IMG/VR virus record: IMGVR_UViG_2660237933_000006
Coordinates: 1-10,788 of that record
Origin: a virus
Taxonomy: Duplodnaviria > Heunggongvirae > Uroviricota > Caudoviricetes
Length of the DNA stretch: 10,788 nucleotides
Direction: 5' to 3' (one strand)
Under the pieces are notes generated by a model. The model ran no database searches, was not told where the DNA came from, and saw nothing but the letters and a program-made list of their open reading frames with translations. Both the position numbers and the translations under genes were made by a program. Of the stretch, positions 1-10,788 are shown piece after piece (the first letter of the stretch is position 1; every line of letters begins with the position of its first letter).

Positions 1-933
1 ATGGACAACGACAAAATTGATCAACACAGCGACGAAATTGAAGTTGAGAGCGAAGAAAAAGAGCGCGGCAAAAAAATAGAAATAGATGAAGACCGACTCC
101 CCTCCCGGGCGATGGCAATTCATGAGCATATCCGCCAGGATGGTGAAAAAGAGCTGGAACGCGACGCAATGGCGCTACTGTGGTCAGCCATTGCGGCGGG
201 TCTGTCGATGGGCGCTTCGTTACTGGCAAAAGGGATATTTCAAGTCGAACTGGAAGGTGTGCCGGGCAGCTTCTTGCTGGAGAATCTCGGTTATACCTTT
301 GGTTTTATTATCGTCATTATGGCCCGCCAGCAATTATTTACCGAAAATACCGTGACTGCGGTACTACCCGTCATGCAAAAACCGACAATGAGCAACGTCG
401 GCTTACTTATACGGTTATGGGGCGTCGTGCTGCTGGGTAATATTCTCGGGACAGGTATTGCGGCGTGGGCATTTGAATATATGCCTATCTTCAATGAAGA
501 AACTCGCGATGCATTTGTCAAAATCGGCATGGATGTGATGAAGAACACCCCCAGCGAGATGTTTGCCAACGCGATCATTTCCGGCTGGCTGATCGCCACT
601 ATGGTTTGGATGTTTCCTGCAGCGGGTGCGGCAAAGATTGTGGTGATTATATTGATGACCTGGCTTATTGCCCTGGGTGACACCACCCATATCGTGGTCG
701 GTTCTGTTGAAATCCTCTATCTGGTGTTTAACGGTACGCTGCACTGGAGCGATTTCATCTGGCCCTTCGCACTACCTACTTTAGCGGGGAACATCTGCGG
801 CGGCACCTTTATCTTCGCGTTAATGAGTCATGCACAGATTCGTAACGACATGAGCAATAAGCGTAAAGCAGAAGCACGCCAAAAAGCAGAACGTGCGGAA
901 AACATTAAGAAAAATTATAAAAACCCGGCATAA
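1..933 (+). CDS. yfdC: Inner-membrane protein of the formate/nitrite transporter (FNT) family, YfdC-like
   Basis: 310-aa ORF beginning at base 1 with ATG. Translation is hydrophobic with multiple predicted membrane helices and a charged N-terminus. It matches my recollection of E. coli YfdC, the gene immediately upstream of argW in K-12. Alternative-frame ORFs inside it are spurious. Confidence 0.8.
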   Translation: MDNDKIDQHSDEIEVESEEKERGKKIEIDEDRLPSRAMAIHEHIRQDGEKELERDAMALLWSAIAAGLSMGASLLAKGIFQVELEGVPGSFLLENLGYTFGFIIVIMARQQLFTENTVTAVLPVMQKPTMSNVGLLIRLWGVVLLGNILGTGIAAWAFEYMPIFNEETRDAFVKIGMDVMKNTPSEMFANAIISGWLIATMVWMFPAAGAAKIVVIILMTWLIALGDTTHIVVGSVEILYLVFNGTLHWSDFIWPFALPTLAGNICGGTFIFALMSHAQIRNDMSNKRKAEARQKAERAENIKKNYKNPA

Positions 934-968
934 ATGGCGAGGGTTTAAGCAATCGAGCGGCAGCGTAC

Positions 969-997
969 TTACCCCGCACTCCATTAGCGGGTATACT
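969..997 (+). promoter_or_regulatory. Candidate sigma70 promoter for argW: -35 TTACCC (969-974), 17-bp spacer, -10 TATACT (992-997), GC-rich discriminator
   Basis: Read directly from sequence. The -10 sits about 11 bp upstream of the mature tRNA 5' end, and the discriminator CATGCCGC is GC-rich as in stringently controlled stable-RNA promoters. The -35 is a weak match. Not experimentally anchored. Confidence 0.35.
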
Positions 998-1008
998 CAT
1001 GCCGCATT

Positions 1009-1083
1009 GTCCTCTTAGTTAAATGGATATAACGAGCCCCTCCTAAGGGCTAATTGCAGGTTCGATTCCTGCAGGGGACACCA
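1009..1083 (+). tRNA. argW: tRNA-Arg, anticodon CCU
   Basis: 75-nt sequence GTCCTCTTAGTT...GCAGGGGACACCA folded by hand into a cloverleaf. Acceptor stem 7 bp (one G-U), D-stem GTTA/TAAC, anticodon stem AGCCC/GGGCT with loop CTCCTAA (anticodon CCT), T-stem GCAGG/CCTGC with loop TTCGATT, discriminator A, encoded CCA. Matches argW, a known prophage integration target. Confidence 0.95.
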
Positions 1084-1178
1084 TTTATCAGTTCGCTCCC
1101 ATCCGTACCAGTCCGCAAAATCCCCTGAATATCAAGCCTTCCGTAGATTCACAGTTCGTAATGGTTCGCGTCAGATCG

Positions 1179-1208
1179 TTGACAGCCGCACTCCATGACG
1201 GGTAAAAA
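1179..1208 (+). promoter_or_regulatory. Candidate integrase promoter: perfect -35 TTGACA (1179-1184), 18-bp spacer, weak -10 TAAAAA (1203-1208)
   Basis: Read from sequence; a consensus -35 hexamer is present but the -10 is a 4/6 match. It overlaps the inverted repeat GGGTAAAAA (1200-1208) described in the findings. Speculative. Confidence 0.25.
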
Positions 1209-1244
1209 GTGGATAAAATAATTTTACCCACCGGATTTTTACCC

Positions 1245-2402
1245 ATGCTCACCGTTAAGCAGATTGAAGCAGCAAAGCCGAAAGAAAAACCATACCGCCT
1301 ACTCGATGGTAATGGCCTGTACCTTTATGTCCCTGTGTCAGGGAAAAAGGTATGGCAGCTTCGCTACAAGATTGACGGTAAGGAGAAAATCCTGACCGTA
1401 GGAAAATATCCGCTAATGACTTTGCAGGAGGCAAGAGATAAAGCATGGACCGCGAGGAAAGACATCTCGGTTGGCATCGATCCGGTAAAAGCGAAAAAGG
1501 CTTCGTCTAACAACAATTCCTTTAGTGCGATTTACAAGGAATGGTACGAGCACAAGAAGCAAGTCTGGTCAGTAGGCTATGCAACTGAACTTGCAAAAAT
1601 GTTTGATGACGACATTTTACCCATCATCGGCGGCCTTGAAATTCAGGATATTGAGCCGATGCAACTGTTGGAAGTAATCCGCAGATTTGAAGATCGCGGC
1701 GCAATGGAGCGAGCCAACAAAGCACGCAGAAGATGCGGCGAGGTTTTCCGTTACGCTATTGTCACCGGAAGGGCTAAATATAACCCGGCACCTGACCTTG
1801 CTGACGCCATGAAGGGATACCGCAAGAAGAACTTCCCGTTTCTTCCTGCAGACCAGATCCCGGAATTCAACAAAGCACTGGCAACATTTTCAGGAAGTAT
1901 CGTATCGCTCATTGCGACCAAAGTTTTACGCTACACAGCCCTCAGAACAAAAGAGCTTCGTTCCATGCTATGGAAGAACGTCGATTTTGAAAACAGGATT
2001 ATCACCATCGACGCCAATGTGATGAAGGGACGCAAAATTCATGTTGTTCCTATGTCAGACCAGGTGGTTGAGCTTCTCACTACGCTAAGCTCCATCACTA
2101 AACCAGTCTCAGAGTTTGTTTTTGCCGGGCGCAACGATAAGAAGAAGCCAATCTGCGAGAACGCGGTATTGCTTGTGATCAAACAAATCGGCTATGAAGG
2201 TCTGGAAAGCGGTCACGGATTCAGGCATGAATTCAGCACGATTATGAACGAGCACGAATGGCCTGCCGACGCCATTGAAGTGCAACTGGCACATGCCAAC
2301 GGCGGATCTGTGCGTGGAATTTACAATCATGCTCAGTATCTCGATAAGCGCAGAGAAATGATGCAATGGTGGGCGGACTGGCTTGATGAAAAGGTAGAGT
2401 GA
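1245..2402 (+). CDS. intS: Prophage tyrosine integrase, P4/CPS-53 (IntS) type
   Basis: Translation MLTVKQIEAAKPKEKPYRLLDGNGLYLYVP... ending ...MMQWWADWLDEKVE matches my recollection of E. coli K-12 IntS (385 aa) almost residue for residue. The C-terminal catalytic region carries R...HxxR...Y-type residues (GHGFRHEF, RGIYNHAQY). The ORF track starts 12 codons upstream at GTG 1209; I chose ATG 1245 by homology although it lacks an obvious Shine-Dalgarno. Confidence 0.9.
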   Translation: MLTVKQIEAAKPKEKPYRLLDGNGLYLYVPVSGKKVWQLRYKIDGKEKILTVGKYPLMTLQEARDKAWTARKDISVGIDPVKAKKASSNNNSFSAIYKEWYEHKKQVWSVGYATELAKMFDDDILPIIGGLEIQDIEPMQLLEVIRRFEDRGAMERANKARRRCGEVFRYAIVTGRAKYNPAPDLADAMKGYRKKNFPFLPADQIPEFNKALATFSGSIVSLIATKVLRYTALRTKELRSMLWKNVDFENRIITIDANVMKGRKIHVVPMSDQVVELLTTLSSITKPVSEFVFAGRNDKKKPICENAVLLVIKQIGYEGLESGHGFRHEFSTIMNEHEWPADAIEVQLAHANGGSVRGIYNHAQYLDKRREMMQWWADWLDEKVE

Positions 2403-2496
2403 GCGGCCTTAAACTATCGAATAGCACAAAGCCTTGCAATACAGTGCAAAGCCTTGTGTGTCTCAGTTTTGTCCTGTGTGCCAGATATTGAATGGC

Positions 2497-3090
2497 CTAC
2501 GCCTCCGGCAGTTCAGGCCAGATGATATCCGGCGCGGTGCTGGTATCTGTTACCGTCACCGCGTCAATGTAATCCAGCACGGCGTTAAGTCGGGTTGTTT
2601 CTGCCTGCGTCAGTTTCCGTCCGGCCTGCAATTTCAGTTGAATCAGACTAATGGAAGCCATTGCAGTATCAATCAGTGACTGACGTTGTGCTTCTGCCGC
2701 GTCTACTGCGGCGCTATGCTGTGCCTCGGTATCCGTCACCCATTTCTCACCATCCCATTTATCGTATGGCGTTAACGGTGAAAGCGTGACATAACCGTCT
2801 TTGATGGCACCGATATAATACACTGTAACAGCTGCGCCATTTTCTGTTGAGTAAACAGTCTCATTGCGATGGTCTTCTTCATGGCTCCATCCCTTACCCG
2901 TAAATACTGCCACTTTCCCCGGAATGTTTTCGCCCGGGTCAATACCAGTGGAACAGGCGGGCATACTTACGCCAGTATTAATATATTCATCAGACCAGCC
3001 CGTATACTCAGATGTTTCAGCATCATAATAAAAACAACGCATATCGCCCGGCACTGTAGCCAGCCCATTTTCATCAAAAACAGGTTTCAT
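2497..3090 (-). CDS. tfa: Tail fiber assembly protein (Tfa; chaperone for the side tail fiber)
   Basis: 197-aa ORF. The C-terminal half has the Tfa motifs I recall from lambda Tfa and T4 gp38-like chaperones (WxGxxWVxDTEA, DTSTAPDIxWPE). Its ATG overlaps the stf stop (TAATG on the minus strand), implying translational coupling. Confidence 0.85.
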   Translation of the reverse strand: MKPVFDENGLATVPGDMRCFYYDAETSEYTGWSDEYINTGVSMPACSTGIDPGENIPGKVAVFTGKGWSHEEDHRNETVYSTENGAAVTVYYIGAIKDGYVTLSPLTPYDKWDGEKWVTDTEAQHSAAVDAAEAQRQSLIDTAMASISLIQLKLQAGRKLTQAETTRLNAVLDYIDAVTVTDTSTAPDIIWPELPEA

Positions 3091-5519
3091 TATTTAGCCC
3101 TCACCAGAAAGTTAAATGCAATATTTCGCGGTCTGACAGCAACAAAATTCACACCATCACCCACAGAGTTACCGGTGAAATTAAATCGTGAAAATCCTGG
3201 CTGATTTCCGGCGATGCCATCATGAAAGTTAATTGCGTGTCCCGCACCTAAGCCTACATTCCCGGCAAAATGAGAAAAGTTTGTAGCTTCCTGCCAGCTT
3301 AATAATTCGCGACCACCATCTGCACCTCGCCCGTCATCCCAGATACGAATGAAATCACCGCGGGCTTCAGGTAATACCAGCGAAGGAAACACTTTCGCCA
3401 GCACAGGGTAATCAGAGGCAGAAAATTTCGCCCCGTTGAACTTCAAAAACACCATACTGGACCAGCTGTCGATTACAGTATTTGGCATTGCAGCGGACGG
3501 CCAGAAGAACGGAACGCCAATAGCTGGAGCACCTTCTCCCAAACCAAGGTAATCAAGAACTCCCTGAGTGCTGGTTTTGCCAAGAATGGCACGTCCAACA
3601 CTTGTCAATGCAGTTAACGCGGCACGATCAACACCTGTGAAATAAGGGAGTTTATCTGCTGCTGTAGCTAGTGCCGCTAGAGCAGTGAGCGTAGCGTCTG
3701 CCGCTTGCTTTCCATTAGCCAAATCATATGCAGCCTTGACAGCTTTCGGTGTGGCGGCCAGCACTTCGGACGTGCTATTGGTAGCACTACTGAGCTGAAC
3801 TATCCCCTTTTTCGTCGTGCTCGCATCCTCAAGCGCCACGGCGGATGCAATATCCTCTGCCCGTTTTGCCGCTGTCTCAGCGCGCGTTGCTGCAGATTCC
3901 GCCGTACTTTTGCTCTGAGCTGCTGCCGTCGCACTGCCAGCTGCCTCTGTCGCCTTCGTGGATGCCGTCGTGGCGCTACCCTTCGCTGCTGACGCCTGTC
4001 TGGTCGCCTCATCTTTTGAAGCAGACGCCGATGAGGCCGATGACGCCGCCGAACTGGCGGACGATGCGGCAGCCGTTTTTGAGGATTCTGCACGGGTTTC
4101 CGACGCTTTCGCGTTCGTTTCGGATGTCTTCGCTGCGGAAGCAGACCTCGCTGCTGCGCTGGCCTGTTCAGTGGCTTCGCCAGCCTTCGTTGTGGCTGTT
4201 GAAGCGGATGATGCGGCGCTTTCTGCCGATTTTCCGGCAGCGGTGGCACTGGCTGAGGCCTGCCCGGCACTTGTTGACGCAGCACTGGCAGACGACGCAG
4301 CCGCTGTTTTTGAACCTGCCGCAGCTGAGGCGCTCTGTCCCGCTGCTGTTTCAGAAGACCTGGCGTTCGTCTCGGACGTCTTTGCCGCCTTCGCGGAATT
4401 TCCTGCCGCCGTTGCCGAGGAAGCGGCACTACTGGCGCTTGATGATGCGTTCGTTTCTGATGATTTCGCTGCCTCTTTTGAGGCCGCCGCATCCCGGGCT
4501 GAGGTGGCAGCTTCTGACGCCTTTGTGGTCGCGGCGGATGCAGAAGTGGCTGCAGATTTTTGTGACGCTGCCGCATTCGTTTCTGACGTTTTCGCGGCAC
4601 TGGCAGATGATGCAGCCGCTGTTTTTGAGCCTGCCGCAGCTGAGGCACTCTGTCCCGCTGCTGTTTCAGAAGACCTGGCGTTCGTCTCGGACGTCTTTGC
4701 CGCCTTCGCGGAATTTCCTGCCGCCGTTGCCGAGGAAGCGGCACTACTGGCGCTTGATGATGCGTTCGTTTCTGATGATTTCGCTGCCTCTTTTGAGGCC
4801 GCCGCATCCCGGGCTGAGGTGGCAGCTTCTGACGCCTTTGTGGTCGCGGCGGATGCAGAAGTGGCTGCAGATTTTTGTGACGCTGCCGCATTCGTTTCTG
4901 ACGTTTTCGCGGCACTGGCACTGGTAGCTGCCGCGCTTTTTGAGGACTCTGCAGCGGCAGCACTTTTTGATGCTTCAGTGGCCTTTGTTGATGCCGTTCC
5001 TGCGCTGGAAGTCGCTGACTGAGCCGACGACGCGGCCTGTCCGGCTGACGTGCTGGCTGCGCGTGCTGAGCCTGCAGCATCAGTCGCATGGGTTGCCGCC
5101 TCACGGGCTGATGTGCTGGCATCACTGGCTGACTTCTTCGCGGCTGCCGTGTTCTGTGCCACCACGGACGCGTTACGCGCCACCTCTTCCACCATCAGCT
5201 CAAAACGGCGCAGTGCCTCCGGACGGGCATCATCCTCCGTCATGGCACCGAGAAAATCATTCAGCGTACCGGGTCGGGAATCTTCATACACGGTAATGGT
5301 CCCGGCATGTGATGGCGGGAATCCCTCCACCAACAGACTGACGCTGTACTGACCATACTCGACGTCCATTGTGTAACGCCCGGCTTCATCCGGGTTTTCT
5401 GAGGCCACTGTGTTCACCACCACCGTGGTGCTGTTGCGCCTGGCCTTTAGCTGAATGGTGCAGTTTTGTATCGGCTTACCTGCGCCATCTTTCAGTACAC
5501 CTGAAATCTTTACTGCCAT
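3090..5519 (-). CDS. stf: Side tail fiber protein (Stf), lambda orf401/orf314 homolog, intact single ORF
   Basis: N-terminus MAVKISGVLKDGAGKPIQNCTIQLKARRNSTTVVVNT... is lambda-Stf-like. A long Ala/Ser/Thr/Lys-rich shaft with SETNA-type repeats is followed by the conserved KLPYF boundary motif and a distal domain ending NIAFNFLVRAK. Start set at ATG 5517-5519 (SD-like GGGG 6-9 nt upstream); the ORF track's GTG at 5523-5525 is an alternative. Confidence 0.85.
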   Translation of the reverse strand: MAVKISGVLKDGAGKPIQNCTIQLKARRNSTTVVVNTVASENPDEAGRYTMDVEYGQYSVSLLVEGFPPSHAGTITVYEDSRPGTLNDFLGAMTEDDARPEALRRFELMVEEVARNASVVAQNTAAAKKSASDASTSAREAATHATDAAGSARAASTSAGQAASSAQSATSSAGTASTKATEASKSAAAAESSKSAAATSASAAKTSETNAAASQKSAATSASAATTKASEAATSARDAAASKEAAKSSETNASSSASSAASSATAAGNSAKAAKTSETNARSSETAAGQSASAAAGSKTAAASSASAAKTSETNAAASQKSAATSASAATTKASEAATSARDAAASKEAAKSSETNASSSASSAASSATAAGNSAKAAKTSETNARSSETAAGQSASAAAGSKTAAASSASAASTSAGQASASATAAGKSAESAASSASTATTKAGEATEQASAAARSASAAKTSETNAKASETRAESSKTAAASSASSAASSASSASASKDEATRQASAAKGSATTASTKATEAAGSATAAAQSKSTAESAATRAETAAKRAEDIASAVALEDASTTKKGIVQLSSATNSTSEVLAATPKAVKAAYDLANGKQAADATLTALAALATAADKLPYFTGVDRAALTALTSVGRAILGKTSTQGVLDYLGLGEGAPAIGVPFFWPSAAMPNTVIDSWSSMVFLKFNGAKFSASDYPVLAKVFPSLVLPEARGDFIRIWDDGRGADGGRELLSWQEATNFSHFAGNVGLGAGHAINFHDGIAGNQPGFSRFNFTGNSVGDGVNFVAVRPRNIAFNFLVRAK
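4291..4920. repeat. Tandem direct repeat, 2 x 315 bp (copy 1 4291-4605, copy 2 4606-4920), inside stf
   Basis: Aligned by hand. Across the 309 bp from 4297/4612 onward the copies differ at 2 positions (gaaCctgcc vs gaGcctgcc; gaggcGctc vs gaggcActc), and the first 6 bp differ at 2 more (gacgac vs gatgat). The period is an exact multiple of 3 and the two encoded 105-aa units are identical. Confidence 0.9.
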
Positions 5520-5530
5520 ATTCACCCCAC

Positions 5531-5556
5531 AAAAAAGCCCGCCTGAACCGGCGGGC
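5531..5556 (-). terminator. Rho-independent terminator downstream of lom
   Basis: On the minus strand: GCCCGCC-GGTTCA-GGCGGGC stem-loop (7-bp GC-rich stem) followed by TTTTTT, lying between the lom stop (5584) and the stf start (5519). Confidence 0.6.
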
Positions 5557-5583
5557 TGTCATAACACTGTGTTACCTGGCTAA

Positions 5584-6183
5584 TCAGAATTTATAACCGA
5601 CACCCACGATGAAACCGTCAGTGCGCCAGTCACCACTGCCGGAGCCTTCATAAGCAATATCAATGGCCACGGATTCGGTCGGGTTAAACTGCACGCCAGC
5701 CCCCCACGCCAGAGACGTGTTGCTGTGGCGACCGTCATCACTTCCGGTCAGCACATCGTGCGTTTTCCCCTTGTTGTCAGTTACGCGGAGATAATCTCCG
5801 GAGAAAGTCGACACACGGCTGTAAGACACACCCGCCATCGCATACGCGCTGAACCATTCATTCACGCGCACAGACGGCCCCGCCATCACGCTGAACCAGC
5901 GGTTACGCACGGAATCTTCATGCCAGCGGGTATCGCTGTAACGGGTCAGCTGGCGATTCTTGTCTCCTGCATAGCTGAATGACGTCACCATCCCCAGTGT
6001 GTCCGTAAACTCATAACGGTATTTCACGTTAATCCCGTTCAGATTATCGCTGCCGGGAGCGTTCGTACGGGCATGAAGATACCCTGCGCTCAGTGTGGCC
6101 TGCTGCTCAGACGCCCATGCAGGCGCACCGGATACGGCCAGACAGATGGCTGCGGACAAAATGGCTGCACAAACTTTACGCAT
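5584..6183 (-). CDS. lom: Outer-membrane beta-barrel protein of the Lom/Ail/PagC family (phage moron)
   Basis: 199 aa with an N-terminal signal peptide (MRKVCAAILSAAICLAVSGAPAWA|SEQ). The C-terminus ...AYEGSGSGDWRTDGFIVGVGYKF matches lambda Lom as I recall it and ends in an aromatic residue typical of OM barrels. SD GAGAGG upstream of the ATG. Position between J and stf is as in lambda. Confidence 0.9.
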   Translation of the reverse strand: MRKVCAAILSAAICLAVSGAPAWASEQQATLSAGYLHARTNAPGSDNLNGINVKYRYEFTDTLGMVTSFSYAGDKNRQLTRYSDTRWHEDSVRNRWFSVMAGPSVRVNEWFSAYAMAGVSYSRVSTFSGDYLRVTDNKGKTHDVLTGSDDGRHSNTSLAWGAGVQFNPTESVAIDIAYEGSGSGDWRTDGFIVGVGYKF

Positions 6184-6207
6184 AATTACCTCTCGCTTTT
6201 CTGCAAT

Positions 6208-6231
6208 AAAAAAGGCGCCATTTCTGGCGCC
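6208..6231 (-). terminator. Hairpin plus T-tract between J and lom (intrinsic terminator or lom 5'-UTR structure)
   Basis: On the minus strand: GGCGCCA-GAAA-TGGCGCC (7-bp stem) followed by TTTTTTATT, then the lom SD and ATG 24 nt later. Confidence 0.6.
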
Positions 6232-6250
6232 CGTATATGGGTTATAAAAT

Positions 6251-9200
6251 TCAGCTGATACTGATGCCTGCGGTGGATTTTTTCATCACCACAACCAGCA
6301 GATCGCTGATACTGGTTGTTGGTGTCCAGTTATTCGCTCCTGATGAAGATACGGTGAATGTCAGTGTCAGCGTCCCCTGTCCGGCAGGCATATCTATAAC
6401 TGAGGAAAATACGCCCTGAGCATCCGTCGTGGACTGATTAAAAATCTCCTGACCATTGCGGGTCACTCTTAACCGGCAGGTTGAATACCAGTATGACTGT
6501 TGGTTATTACTGTTGAAATTCTCATGCTTACCACCGCGGAATAACACTGGCGGTATCATGACCTGCCGGTCAAATTTCTGATCATCACTGATTCTTACCG
6601 TGATGGTGCCACTGGCATAACTGTTCGTGCGGGGGAAAGACTTGCTGACCGTTTTGACAATATCGCCTTCAATCTGATTGGCTGACAGTTTCCCCTTAAT
6701 CTGACAGTTTTCATTAATCGTGACATTGTTGAGCGTCCCTGAATTTGCATTCACATTACCGCTGATATCCGCATTTTTAGCGGTCAGCTTTCCGTCCGGT
6801 GTCAGGGAAAATACCGGAGGATTACCGCCGCTGGTAATGGTGGGAGCCGTCAGGCGTTTCAGGAACACGTCGTTCATGAATATCTGATCGCCCTGCCCAA
6901 CAAACATCGGCTTTGTGTTGCCATTCGCAGGATTAATCATCGCAATCCTGTCTGCCGCCAGCAGCACCTGACTCTGCATGCCGTCAGGGGTGTTCTCAAT
7001 ACCGGCACCAATACCCGCGATATAAAGGCGTCCGTCCTGCATCTGCTGCAGCTTCACAGCCCACATGCTGTTCAGGTTATTATTTGTATCAACCTGAACT
7101 TTCTGTATCTGCTGGATCGCTGCACTCTGGTCTTCCAGTTTCTTATTGACGGTCTGTGTGATTTCATTGCTGACATCCGTAATGGATGTCCTGATTTCAG
7201 CCAGGTCAGGCGCAAGCTGACCGTTATCAATCTGCGTCCACAGCTCCTGAGCCAGATGGGTTTTCCCTATCTCGCCTTTGAAAAAATCCAGATAGCCGGA
7301 TGCATCATCACTCGGCTGACCAACAGCCTCCACGAATGCCGATTTGCCAACGGTGTTCACACTGCGAACGTAAAAATAATAATCATGGCCCGGTTTGATA
7401 TTGATACTGGCGGCTATCCAGTACAGCGCCGTACCAAGATAGCGGGCTGTGGTTTCAACCTGCCTGATATCGGTAATCCGCTTTTCCGAGAACCAGAACT
7501 CAAACTGTACCGTCGGATCATAAACCGCAAGATGCGGCGTGGCGGTTATCTGAAAATACCCCGGCGTCAGCTCAATCCGCGACGGCGCTGCCGGGGCGGC
7601 AATCCGGAACGATACCGACGCCGGATCGCCCTGCTGTCCCCACGCATTTACCGCCCGGACTGTCAGCGTGTACCGCCCCAGCGCCAGTTGCGTGAAGCGG
7701 TATGTGGTTTCTGTCGTCCGGGCCGTGCTGACCAGCCGCTCACTGCCGTCGTCCGCTGCCACGGTCAGGCGAAGCATAAAGCTCACGCCCTTCACCACCT
7801 TCGGTGTGTCCCATCGCGCCAGCACCTGATATTCCCCGCTGTCTGCAGTGACTTCTGCGGTCAGGTGCTGCACCGCTGGCGGCGTGACACCATTCACCGT
7901 GCCACTCTGTTCGCCGTCAAAGTGCGCCCCGTTATCCACGATGGCCTCTTTTTCCGGCACATGCTGCACGGCGGTGATGGCATACGTGCCGTCGTCGTTC
8001 TCACGGATACTCACGCAGCGGAACAGGCGCTGGCGCAGCGTCGGCAGCTTAAGCCCCCACACGCTGTATTCAGCAACACCCTCAGGAACACGGCTCACTT
8101 TTACCTTCACGCCGTCGGTGACGGACTGAACCTCCACGCTGACCGGATTGCCACTTCCGTCAACCAGGCTTATCAGCGTGGTACCGGAGGATGGCAGCGT
8201 GATTTCACGGTCGAGCGTCAGCGTCCGGGTCTGGCTGTTCACCGCCAGCACACGACCACCGGTGCTGATACCGGCATAGTCATCATCGCAGATTTCAATA
8301 ACATCGCCCGGTACATGGCGAAGCCCTTCTGCGCCGACGCTGAAATCCACGGTCTGCGTCTCCAGCAGCTCCGTTTTAATCAGCCACAGCCCGGCGCGGT
8401 GTGCCTGCCCCCGGCTGGTACAGCCAAAGGCATCCATCTTCGTAACATTACGACCGTAACGGGCAATGGCCTGCGTATCTTCAACAAGCTCTGTCGCCGT
8501 CTCCCAGCCGTTGTTCGGGTCAATCCAGTTCACCTCAACGGCATTATGGCGGTCCTTCAGGGCGCTGAAGCTGTAGCGGAACGGCGCGCCATCATCCGGC
8601 ATCACCACATTACTGCGGTTATAGGTCCACACCTTATCTGATGGTCGGTCCTGCACGAACGTCAGCGTCTGCCCGTTCCATACCGGCATACAGCGCATCG
8701 CCGAGCAGAAATCACTGAGCACATCCCACGCCTTACGCTGCGTGGTCAGGTAGGCATTACAGGTGATGCGCGGCTCCGTGCCGCCAAAACCGTCCGGCAC
8801 TGACTGGTCGCAGTACTGGCCGATGACATACAGCGCCCATTTATCCACATCCGCCGCACCAAGACGTTTCCCCATGCCGTAGCGCGGGTGGGTCAGCATA
8901 TCCCACAGACACCAGGCCATGTTGTTGCTGTATGCTGGTTTTAACGTTCCGTCCCAGATACCGCTGTATTGTCGCGTCTGCGGGTTATAGTTCGACGGCA
9001 CCTGCAGAATGCGCCCGCGAAGATGATAATTACGACTCACCTGCTGGCTGCCGAACTGCTCCGAGTCCACCTGTACGCCGACCAGTGCCGTGTTCGGGTA
9101 GCACTGTTTCACATCGATGATTTCGGTGTATGACGACCAGAGCGTTTTGTTCTGCAGCTGGTCTGTGGTGCTGTCCGGCGTCATCCTGCGCATCCGGATA

Positions 9201-9733
9201 TTAAACGGGCGCGGCGGCAGGTTATCCACCACCACCGAGGCCAGATACTGCGAGGTGGTTTTGCCCTTAATGGTGATGTCTTTTTCCGTCACCCAGCCAC
9301 CATTACGCTGTATCTGAACCAGCAGGCGAACTTCCGACGGATTCCGGTCCCCCTTTGAGGTGGTTTCCACCAGTGCCTGCACACCGAAGGTAAAGCGCAG
9401 TCGGTCGATGTTTGCCGACGTGATGGTGCGGGTGATCGGCGTGTCATATTTCACTTCCGTACCCAGCACCGTCTCGGAGCCGGAGGATTCAAACCCCTCC
9501 GGCGGAGTCTGCTCCTGCTCACCTGCCCGGAACACCACCGTGACACCGGAGATGTTGGTATTCCCCTCAGTGTCCAGCACCGGCGTACTGTTCAGCAGCA
9601 CGCTTTTTAAGCCATCCACCGGACCTTCAATCGGGCCTTCACTAATGGCATCAATCACACTCAGCAACTGCGTTGATTTCAGGTTGTCCTTCGCTTCACG
9701 CGGGGTATGCCCCTTACTGCTGCCTTTACCCAT
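6251..9733 (-). CDS. J: Tail tip / host-specificity protein J (central tail fiber)
   Basis: 1160-aa ORF. N-terminus [42 protein letters not shown]... matches lambda J as I recall it, with long similar stretches through the fibronectin-like central region. Size and position (between I and lom) match lambda J, recalled as 1132 aa. Confidence 0.93.
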
Positions 9734-9740
9734 TCCTCAC

Positions 9741-9776
9741 GCTCCATAAACGACAAAACCGCCCGCAGGCGGTTTC
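9741..9776 (-). terminator. Terminator-like stem-loop in the I-J intergenic spacer
   Basis: On the minus strand: AAACCGCC-TGCG-GGCGGTTT (8-bp stem, plus-strand coordinates 9756-9775) followed by the T-rich TGTCGTTTAT, then SD and the J ATG. Function uncertain. Confidence 0.3.
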
Positions 9777-9793
9777 ACATAAAACATTTTGCA

Positions 9794-10435
9794 TCAGCGA
9801 CCAATCACCACAACCTGACCACCGTCCCCTTCGTCTGCCGTGCTGATCTCCTGAGAAACCACCCGCGACCCCACACGCATTTCACCGTACAGAACAGGCA
9901 GGACATTGCCCTGGGCAACCATGTTATCCAGTGAGGAGAAATAGGTGTTCTGTTTGCCGTTATCCGTTGTCTGTGTACGTGGAGTTTTGGGTTTAGGGGC
10001 CAGCATCTGTGCGACACCACCAAGCGTCATCGCTGCCCCCATAGAAAAGAGAATGTTACTGAAAGCGATACTGATTCCTGGCATCCAGATTGCCGTAGCA
10101 ATCAGCGCCGCCCCCAGCACTGCCTGAAAAACACCACCACTTTTGGCACCCGCCAGACGCGGTACGATGTGGATCACGGCACCATTTGCCAGCGGCTCAT
10201 TAAGACGGGCAGATAATTCGTTTTCGCCTGCATCACGCCCGGCAATCCGTACCTGATACCAGCCGTCGCTCAGTTTCTGACGAAACGCCGGGAGCTGTGT
10301 GGCCAGTGCGCGGATGGCTTCAGCCCCCGTTTTCACACGAAGGTCGATGCGGCGGCCAAATCGTTGCAAATCCCCGTAAAGGCAGATGCGCGCCATGCCC
10401 GGTGACGCCAGAGGGAGTGTGTGCGTCGCTGCCAT
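9794..10435 (-). CDS. I: Tail assembly protein I
   Basis: 213 aa. N-terminus MAATHTLPLASPGMARICLYGDLQRFGRRIDLRVKTGAEAIRALATQLPAFRQKLSDGWYQVRIAGRD and C-terminus ...NVLPVLYGEMRVGSRVVSQEISTADEGDGGQVVVIGR match lambda I from memory. The first 103 nt overlap the 3' end of K in another frame. Confidence 0.9.
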   Translation of the reverse strand: MAATHTLPLASPGMARICLYGDLQRFGRRIDLRVKTGAEAIRALATQLPAFRQKLSDGWYQVRIAGRDAGENELSARLNEPLANGAVIHIVPRLAGAKSGGVFQAVLGAALIATAIWMPGISIAFSNILFSMGAAMTLGGVAQMLAPKPKTPRTQTTDNGKQNTYFSSLDNMVAQGNVLPVLYGEMRVGSRVVSQEISTADEGDGGQVVVIGR

Positions 10436-10788
10436 TTGTCGGTATACCTCTCTCGTTTGCTCAGTTGTTCAGGAATATGGTGCAGCAGCTCGCCGTCGCC
10501 GCAGTAAATTGCGGCGTGATTCGGCACCGATGAACCAAAACAGCACAGCAGCACATCGCCCGGCTGTGCCGCTGACAACGGCACCTGATACAGCCCCGTC
10601 GCCTCCAGATTATCCAGATAGAGATTCTGGCCGTTACGCCACCAGTCATCCTCACGATGAAAGTCCGGCATCTCAATCCCCGCCAGATGATAAGCATCCC
10701 GGAACAGTGTGTAACAGTCCGTCACACCGTGCTCAAAGCGCCGCCCGGTGAGATGCGGCACACAGCGGAACTTATGAATCGCCCCCCG
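10333..10788 (-). CDS. K: Tail assembly protein K, C-terminal NlpC/P60-like part; 5' end lies beyond the window
   Basis: The reading frame is open from the window edge (hand translation of 10762-10788 gives RGAIHKFRC with no stop); the ORF-track start at 10761 is an internal GTG. The translation carries the Cys (VTDCYTLF) and His (HHAAIYCGDG) motifs of NlpC/P60 peptidase domains, as in lambda K. Position upstream of and overlapping I matches lambda. Confidence 0.85.
   Translation of the reverse strand, partial: RGAIHKFRCVPHLTGRRFEHGVTDCYTLFRDAYHLAGIEMPDFHREDDWWRNGQNLYLDNLEATGLYQVPLSAAQPGDVLLCCFGSSVPNHAAIYCGDGELLHHIPEQLSKRERYTDKWQRRTHSLWRHRAWRASAFTGICNDLAAASTFV

Follow-up and report, generated by a model that had tools for sequence, protein, structure and literature searches.

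Lambda-type side tail fibres and the Stf protein of the window

The side tail fibre protein (Stf) of phage Ur-lambda is a trimer in which a collar (residues 1-91) is followed by a linker (92-101), a proximal coiled coil (102-393), a hinge (394-422) and a distal part (PMC12617516). The lambda Stf rod has been described as a trimeric coiled coil on the basis of cryo-electron microscopy and a model based on AlphaFold 3 (PMC12617516). The present report deals with the corresponding gene, stf, in a 10,788-nt stretch of tailed-phage DNA (positions 1 to 10,788 of IMG/VR record IMGVR_UViG_2660237933_000006), which is called the window throughout, and with a 315-bp tandem duplication that is an exact in-frame doubling of a 105-residue piece of the Stf rod. 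Ur-lambda Stf (PDB 9e7m/9mgh; PMC12617516) has in common with the window protein the collar domain, Pfam family PF08400 and the gene order J-lom-stf-tfa. In lambda Stf, moreover, the same Ala/Ser heptad rod leads to the hinge motif GIVQLSSATNSTSE, as it does in the window. The differences lie in the rod and in the tip. Lambda has a single 105-aa unit, whose DNA is about 86% identical to that of the window, and its rod comprises 35 heptads (255 aa from the motif ELMVEEV to the hinge motif), compared with 65 heptads (465 aa) in the window. The distal receptor-binding part is entirely unlike that of lambda, the tip of the window protein resembling P2-like and mEp043/mEp213 tips. The lambda fibre is a homotrimer on the virion and has OmpC as its receptor.

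The Stf/StfR proteins of Escherichia coli prophages, annotated as 'prophage tail fiber N-terminal domain-containing protein' (WP_000279160.1 of UMNK88; StfR of the K-12 Rac prophage), are alike over the N-terminal ~500 aa, with 94-98% DNA identity over the rod, and in UMNK88 and E24377A the amino-acid sequence of the 105-aa unit is identical to that in the window. These common prophage proteins have a rod of 50 heptads with the unit present once, whereas the window has the unit twice, and the C-terminal domains also differ, the proteins being mosaic. More generally, fibrous coiled-coil proteins change length by in-register duplication or deletion of repeats. There, length varies by whole heptads, through short direct repeats in repetitive coding DNA and with the register kept, as in the window; the comparison may be taken as a mechanistic analogy and implies no homology.

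The two features of the window on which the following description depends are:

3090-5519, minus strand: stf, side tail fibre, 809 aa counted from the ATG at 5519 (open reading frame list, translation and PF08400)
3819-5183, minus strand: proximal coiled-coil rod, aa 113-567, 65 uninterrupted heptads of the form A-x-x-S-A-x-x (heptad tabulation)

The gene at 3090-5519, which has an in-frame GTG at 5525 upstream of the ATG and a stop codon at 3090-3092, is identified as a lambda-type stf by its PF08400 domain, its position after J and lom, and the tfa gene that comes next; the preliminary description of this DNA, made from the letters alone, had also named it as a side tail fibre gene. J, lom, stf and tfa stand in the expected succession on the minus strand. 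Residues 1-134 of the product match the Pfam N-terminal domain PF08400 (E 1.4e-71), residues 1-94 match the collar domain of Ur-lambda Stf (PDB 9e7m chain Ta; phmmer, E 1.6e-50), and residues 546-609 match the phage Mu tail fibre protein S (5yvq).

Tabulation of the rod showed that heptad position 1 is A or V in 65/65 cases, position 4 is S in 51/65 and position 5 is A in 43/65. No stutter occurs anywhere in the 65-heptad array, the duplication junction included. At Stf aa 571, after the rod, stands the motif KGIVQLSSATNSTSE, as in lambda, and the rod at aa 113-567 is the counterpart of the proximal coiled coil that spans residues 102-393 in Ur-lambda Stf. The DNA period of the rod, determined on one single-copy relative, is 21 nt, the 25 best autocorrelation lags all (25/25) being multiples of 21. 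An AlphaFold 2 (AF2) model of the monomer contained helices at residues 99-251, 269-388, 405-488 and 502-566, with fold-back breaks of the sort usual when fibres are predicted as monomers and a mean predicted local distance difference test score (pLDDT) of 47. The model is helical across the duplication junction, which at such low confidence (pLDDT 47) would lend weak support at most.

An in-frame 315-bp tandem duplication and its junction

Analysis with Tandem Repeats Finder gave a repeat at 4278-4920 with a period of 315, 2.0 copies, 98% matches, 0% indels and a score of 1251, and self-comparison at a lag of 315 revealed 273 consecutive identities (4333-4605 versus 4648-4920). The preliminary description had reported a near-perfect in-frame 315-bp tandem duplication that encodes one 105-aa segment twice, differs between its copies by synonymous changes only and lengthens the fibre shaft by 105 residues. 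Each of these statements was borne out: the period and the lack of indels are as claimed, the peptide is found twice in the product of the minus-strand open reading frame (ORF), and the duplication lies in frame within the rod. The phase used in the preliminary description yields four mismatches (4293/4608, 4296/4611, 4314/4629 and 4332/4647), and a fifth (4281/4596) falls inside the unit when phasing is on codons and heptads. All five are synonymous third-codon changes, and the two 105-aa translations are identical. With the heptad phasing, the parts of the duplication are as follows:

4596-4910, minus strand: copy A (UA), 315 bp, aa 204-308, 15 heptads, heptad-phased
4281-4595, minus strand: copy B (UB), 315 bp, aa 309-413, 15 heptads
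4281-4332, minus strand: 3' end of copy B, haplotype C-T-G-G-T (T-C-A-A-C in copy A, at 4596-4647)
4912-4920, minus strand: upstream 9-nt direct repeat, at the boundary between upstream flank and copy A (X-UA)
4597-4605, minus strand: duplication junction, exact 9-mer TGCCAGTGC (gcactggca on the plus strand) with the crossover within it, from a three-way boundary alignment
4282-4290, minus strand: downstream 9-nt direct repeat, at the boundary between copy B and downstream flank (UB-Y)

No difference separates the copies over unit nt 1-263; they differ at unit nt 264, 282, 300, 303 and 315. Read in gene orientation, all five differences thus fall within the final 52 nt of the unit, for which uniform spread gives a probability of ~1e-4. 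The unit measures exactly 15 heptads, and its duplication adds 15 heptads in frame and in register. It follows from this strict heptad structure, which had gone unnoticed in the preliminary description, that the event was in register and should be structurally tolerable.

For the junction, three boundaries were compared, namely the upstream flank to copy A, copy A to copy B, and copy B to the downstream flank. The 9-mer occurs three times in stf, all at these unit boundaries, and nowhere else in the gene. A direct repeat is therefore present at both ends of the duplication and at its junction, and the copies are arranged head to tail without filler. The junction had been placed in the motif cactggca, with diverged copies at about 4283 and about 4913; the motif itself was confirmed and is slightly longer than given (the 9-mer gcactggca), while the outer copies proved to be exact and not diverged. 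The 9-mer is embedded in 36 nt over which the two parental boundaries share 75% identity, with SK[S/T]AAA[T/S]SASA as the parental boundary protein. The novel junction in stf reads ...GCTGCATCATCTGCCAGTGCCGCGAAAACG...

Copy number in relatives and origin of the duplication

The number of units was determined in related sequences, and every relative whose copy number was readable had a single copy. A 1001-bp query across the repeat was compared with 5,426 complete E. coli genomes and matched 4,193 records. The top 40 of these, together with 59 evenly sampled from them, were all single copy, recognisable from a match in two pieces that together spanned 315 bp less than the query. An 80-bp query across the junction gave no one-piece, high-identity match in the 5,426 complete E. 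coli genomes. Its one-piece matches at 83-86% were not counted as duplications, as they represent the ordinary upstream unit boundary, which resembles the junction. The unit was likewise single copy in the 40 phage records listed out of 46 that matched, lambda among them, and in 25 plasmid records evenly sampled from 185 that matched, and the best 120 protein clusters each carry it once at >=90% identity. The distance from ELMVEEV to the hinge in 87 IMG/VR and GTDB loci was either 255 aa (lambda, 9 loci) or 360 aa (78 loci), compared with 465 aa in the window.

The exact junction pattern was not found in GTDB species representatives or in IMG/VR. A degenerate form of the pattern produced five matches in metagenomes, all of which were set aside as unrelated fibre proteins with AKTSETN-type heptads. 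The exact window Stf protein, taken from the ATG start, was absent from a collection of 15 billion sequences. The duplication is apparently private to the window allele among the genomes searched and, with all readable homologs in single copy, would be derived and recent. The preliminary description had left it to a comparison of homologs whether one or two units is the usual state; every readable homolog has one, and an ancestral two-unit state was not seen.

The age of the event can be judged against the variation among single-copy alleles. Between distinct alleles of the unit the median difference is 22/315 nt, whereas the window copies differ by 5, a likeness well outside chance expectation. 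Within unit nt 1-263 the single-copy alleles show 83 polymorphic sites, and the identity of the window copies over this interval implies that the duplication is young relative to the divergence of the alleles. The five sites at which the copies do differ are all polymorphic among 78 single-copy alleles, and the polymorphisms are common ones (site 264, C 47 / T 31; site 300, G 47 / A 30). The copy A haplotype, T-C-A-A-C, was present in 12 single-copy alleles and the copy B haplotype, C-T-G-G-T, in one; over its full length, copy A matches the one unit of an IMG/VR locus (L068) at 314/315 nt. As the differing sites are standing polymorphisms, the variation was more probably imported by recombination than produced by new mutation or selection. 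Of the two causes offered in the preliminary description, very recent duplication or selection on the protein, the first is thus upheld by the single-copy relatives, and the second is not needed.

We infer that the duplication arose by recombination at short repeats. A long run of 21-nt heptad codons with scattered short in-register direct repeats encodes the rod, and misaligned pairing at one pair of 9-mers, 315 nt apart, would have fused one unit, at its end, with the beginning of another. Such pairing may have come about by replication slippage, by unequal exchange between sister molecules, or by exchange between stf alleles of lambdoid prophages in the same cell. E. coli genomes contain up to 7 places that match the repeat region and up to 16 that match the stf gene. 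The product keeps both frame and heptad register and gains 15 heptads (105 aa), giving the rod of 65. The history with the fewest steps is possibly one unequal exchange involving two stf alleles that differed slightly; duplication on a sister strand followed by a mosaic patch would give the same pattern.

The 9-mer was found at both sites, 315 nt apart, in 13/78 loci with the 360-aa rod, and the substrate for this exact event is therefore present in the population. The remainder of these loci had it downstream only (39), upstream only (4), at neither site (21) or as a shifted pair (1). One relative with the 9-mer pair contains 11 in-register exact repeats of at least 9 nt, at spacings of 6 to 33 heptads, so that other whole-heptad duplications and deletions would be equally feasible. 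The size of 15 heptads would then be due to where the 9-nt repeat happens to occur. An ancient 105-aa super-repeat was considered as the source of this size and rejected: in a single-copy relative, the autocorrelation at a lag of 315 (0.435) does not stand out from that at other multiples of 21 nt, and the many different heptad counts of distant relatives also contradict it.

On this evidence, the probability that the window carries a genuine, recent and apparently private microhomology-mediated tandem duplication in the proximal trimeric coiled-coil rod of Stf is put at about 75%. Several points weigh against it. No close single-copy parent was present among the sampled alleles, the nearest of which are ~4% different in the upstream flank. 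A lineage switch at the copy B end could not be made out among the sampled loci, all of which have at least 26 mismatches in the 621 nt upstream, the region being a fine mosaic. With no sampled locus close to the window, the event is not precisely datable or polarisable, and a two-allele origin is indistinguishable from a later mosaic patch. The allele is unique, its exact protein being absent from the collection of 15 billion sequences, which fits a rare real event or an error; the copy number of two comes from the assembled sequence, and that the longer fibre works is a prediction, the AF2 model having a pLDDT of 47.

It is unlikely that the window has one true unit and that the second came from mis-assembly, for example along a chimeric path through near-identical stf paralogs. 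Such an error would account for a junction that none of the other genomes, phages, plasmids or metagenomes searched contains and for a Stf protein missing from the large protein collection. Several near-identical stf copies are present per E. coli genome (up to 7 for the region and 16 for the gene), and the two copies end in different population haplotypes, as expected if two paralogs had been spliced together. However, the novel junction overlaps single-copy sequence by just 9 exact nt. The k-mer and overlap lengths used by assemblers far exceed this, and junction-spanning reads should therefore exist. Assemblers also tend to collapse tandem repeats and not to expand them. Two copies are, in addition, the minimal path that uses both of the observed unit ends, and the resulting ORF is clean, in frame and in register. 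The opposite error, a real duplication with at least three units that the assembler collapsed to the minimal two, is considered improbable, as it is without positive evidence and no relative has more than one copy. The identical core of 273 bp exceeds typical short-read k-mers, so that extra internal copies of type A would be invisible to a graph assembler and the true copy number could exceed two.

Slightly more improbable still is an older duplication whose copies stayed the same through protein-level selection or mutual gene conversion. It would fit the purely synonymous differences between the copies and the identity of the two 105-aa translations. Set against it are the restriction of the duplication to the window, with no relative sharing it, and the identity of 263 nt, all synonymous sites included, where alleles show 83 polymorphic sites; selection on the protein would not keep synonymous sites. 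The clustering of the differences at one end (~1e-4) and their match to standing polymorphisms also speak against great age and are in keeping with a recent duplication.

Rod length, distal tip and prophage setting

A different block of 15 heptads, directly after the unit, is missing from lambda, and the close relatives consequently form classes of 35, 50 and 65 heptads, with the 65 of the window as the longest array among the relatives sampled. Measured in residues, the classes are 255, 360 and 465 aa, in exact steps of 15 heptads (window 3819-5183 versus loci L001 and L086, the latter being lambda). The block loss in lambda and the unit doubling in the window share an endpoint in the heptad AASSASA, either by coincidence or because of a local hotspot. 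The two steps of 15 heptads look like a coincidence tied to the positions of short repeats.

Representatives of 50%-identity clusters with the same N-terminal domain had ELMVEEV-to-hinge lengths of 107, 136, 248, 255 and 360 aa, and their strict uninterrupted heptad runs ranged from 5 to 51. From these figures, length variation by whole heptads is judged to be a general property of the Stf family. The proposal in the preliminary description that the region is prone to unequal recombination and fibre-length variation thus stands at the level of the family, with 35, 50 and 65 heptads in close relatives and runs of 5 to 51 in distant ones. Three representatives (P0138, P0141 and P0174) have 107 aa between the motifs, which is 2 mod 7, where every other class is 3 mod 7; this points to a skip of one residue or to a boundary placed differently. 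In one plasmid record (H289; NZ_CP020118.1, 44894-45444) the span, which is an alignment span only, is 21 nt shorter than in other single-copy phage-plasmid records, which fits a deletion of one heptad.

The rise along a coiled coil is ~0.15 nm per residue. The 15 extra heptads should accordingly lengthen the proximal arm by ~15-16 nm, and we infer an arm of about 74 nm in the window, compared with about 59 nm in the common 50-heptad form and about 43 nm in lambda. The N-terminal collar, the hinge and the receptor-binding tip are untouched by the duplication. With the register kept and stf and tfa intact, assembly of the fibre should be possible.

Whether length itself is under selection is a separate matter. 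It is doubtful that Stf rod length is a tunable, selected trait, changed in blocks of whole heptads, and that the 65-heptad allele is an adaptive extension. If it were, the longer arm might span a thicker layer of O-antigen or capsule to a receptor in the outer membrane, or it might offset the unusually short P2-like distal tip, and the recurrent 15-heptad steps (35, 50, 65) would reflect a structural constraint and not coincidence. The window allele adds a new length to those of a known protein, formed by an ordinary mechanism in a highly mosaic gene, and it leaves the understanding of Stf unchanged. The strict heptad array indicates that very short repeats are enough to alter the length of the Stf rod in register. 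As a natural pair, the one-unit and two-unit alleles could serve as a probe of side-fibre reach versus adsorption rate and host range, and such reach matters for the engineering of lambda-type fibres.

The distal part of Stf (aa 570-809, window 3093-3812) is unusually short, ~240 aa compared with ~380 in lambda and ~570 in UMNK88. Its last ~160 aa are 88-95% identical to the fibre tips of the 33-kb phage 500465-2, which we take to be P2-like, and of the lambdoid phages mEp043/mEp213. No close DNA match to the distal tip was found among the 5,426 complete E. coli genomes, and no complete E. coli genome matches at least 80% of the length of the whole stf-tfa module. Five metagenome contigs (L161-L165) encode fibre-like proteins with very different N-termini (e.g. 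ISDVQSVASHIDQLPGYLETFRGYLADSE...) and the same Ala-Ser heptads of the form AKTSETN/AKASETx, which shows that this style of coiled coil extends beyond PF08400 fibres.

The chromosomal flank of the window is 99.3% identical to E. coli, which marks the window as one end of a lambda-like prophage that sits at argW in an E. coli chromosome. The other genes of the window are:

1-933, plus strand: yfdC
1009-1083: tRNA-Arg(CCT)
1209-2402, plus strand: intS, P4-type integrase
2497-3090, minus strand: tfa, tail fibre assembly chaperone, directly 3' of stf (Caudo_TAP, Pfam PF02413, E 1.6e-27)
5584-6183, minus strand: lom (Ail/Lom, PF06316)
6251-9733, minus strand: J (PF13550, PF24421, PF12421 and others)
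9794-10435, minus strand: I

The reading frames of stf and tfa are both intact. The plus-strand intS, beside argW, converges on the minus-strand tfa across a gap of 94 bp (2403-2496). The tail-fibre end of this prophage therefore adjoins the integrase, whereas int and tfa are at opposite ends of the lambda prophage map.

Among the GTDB loci with a lambda-type stf, a group on short contigs (L086-L100, L102, L103, L105, L107, L109 and L112), many of them labelled ~1x coverage, comes from assemblies labelled with taxa such as Leeuwenhoekiella, Pseudomonas, Desulfosporosinus, Shewanella, Oceanobacillus, Kitasatospora and Bradyrhizobium, and nine of these contigs have a complete rod of lambda length. 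The presence of lambda-type stf in assemblies of such unrelated taxa looks like contamination with lambda DNA. Two further small tandem repeats were reported in the window by Tandem Repeats Finder, one within the stf rod (4024-4048; 9-bp unit, GACGCCGAT, x2.8) and one in the C-terminal part of J (6682-6725; 19-bp unit, x2.3).

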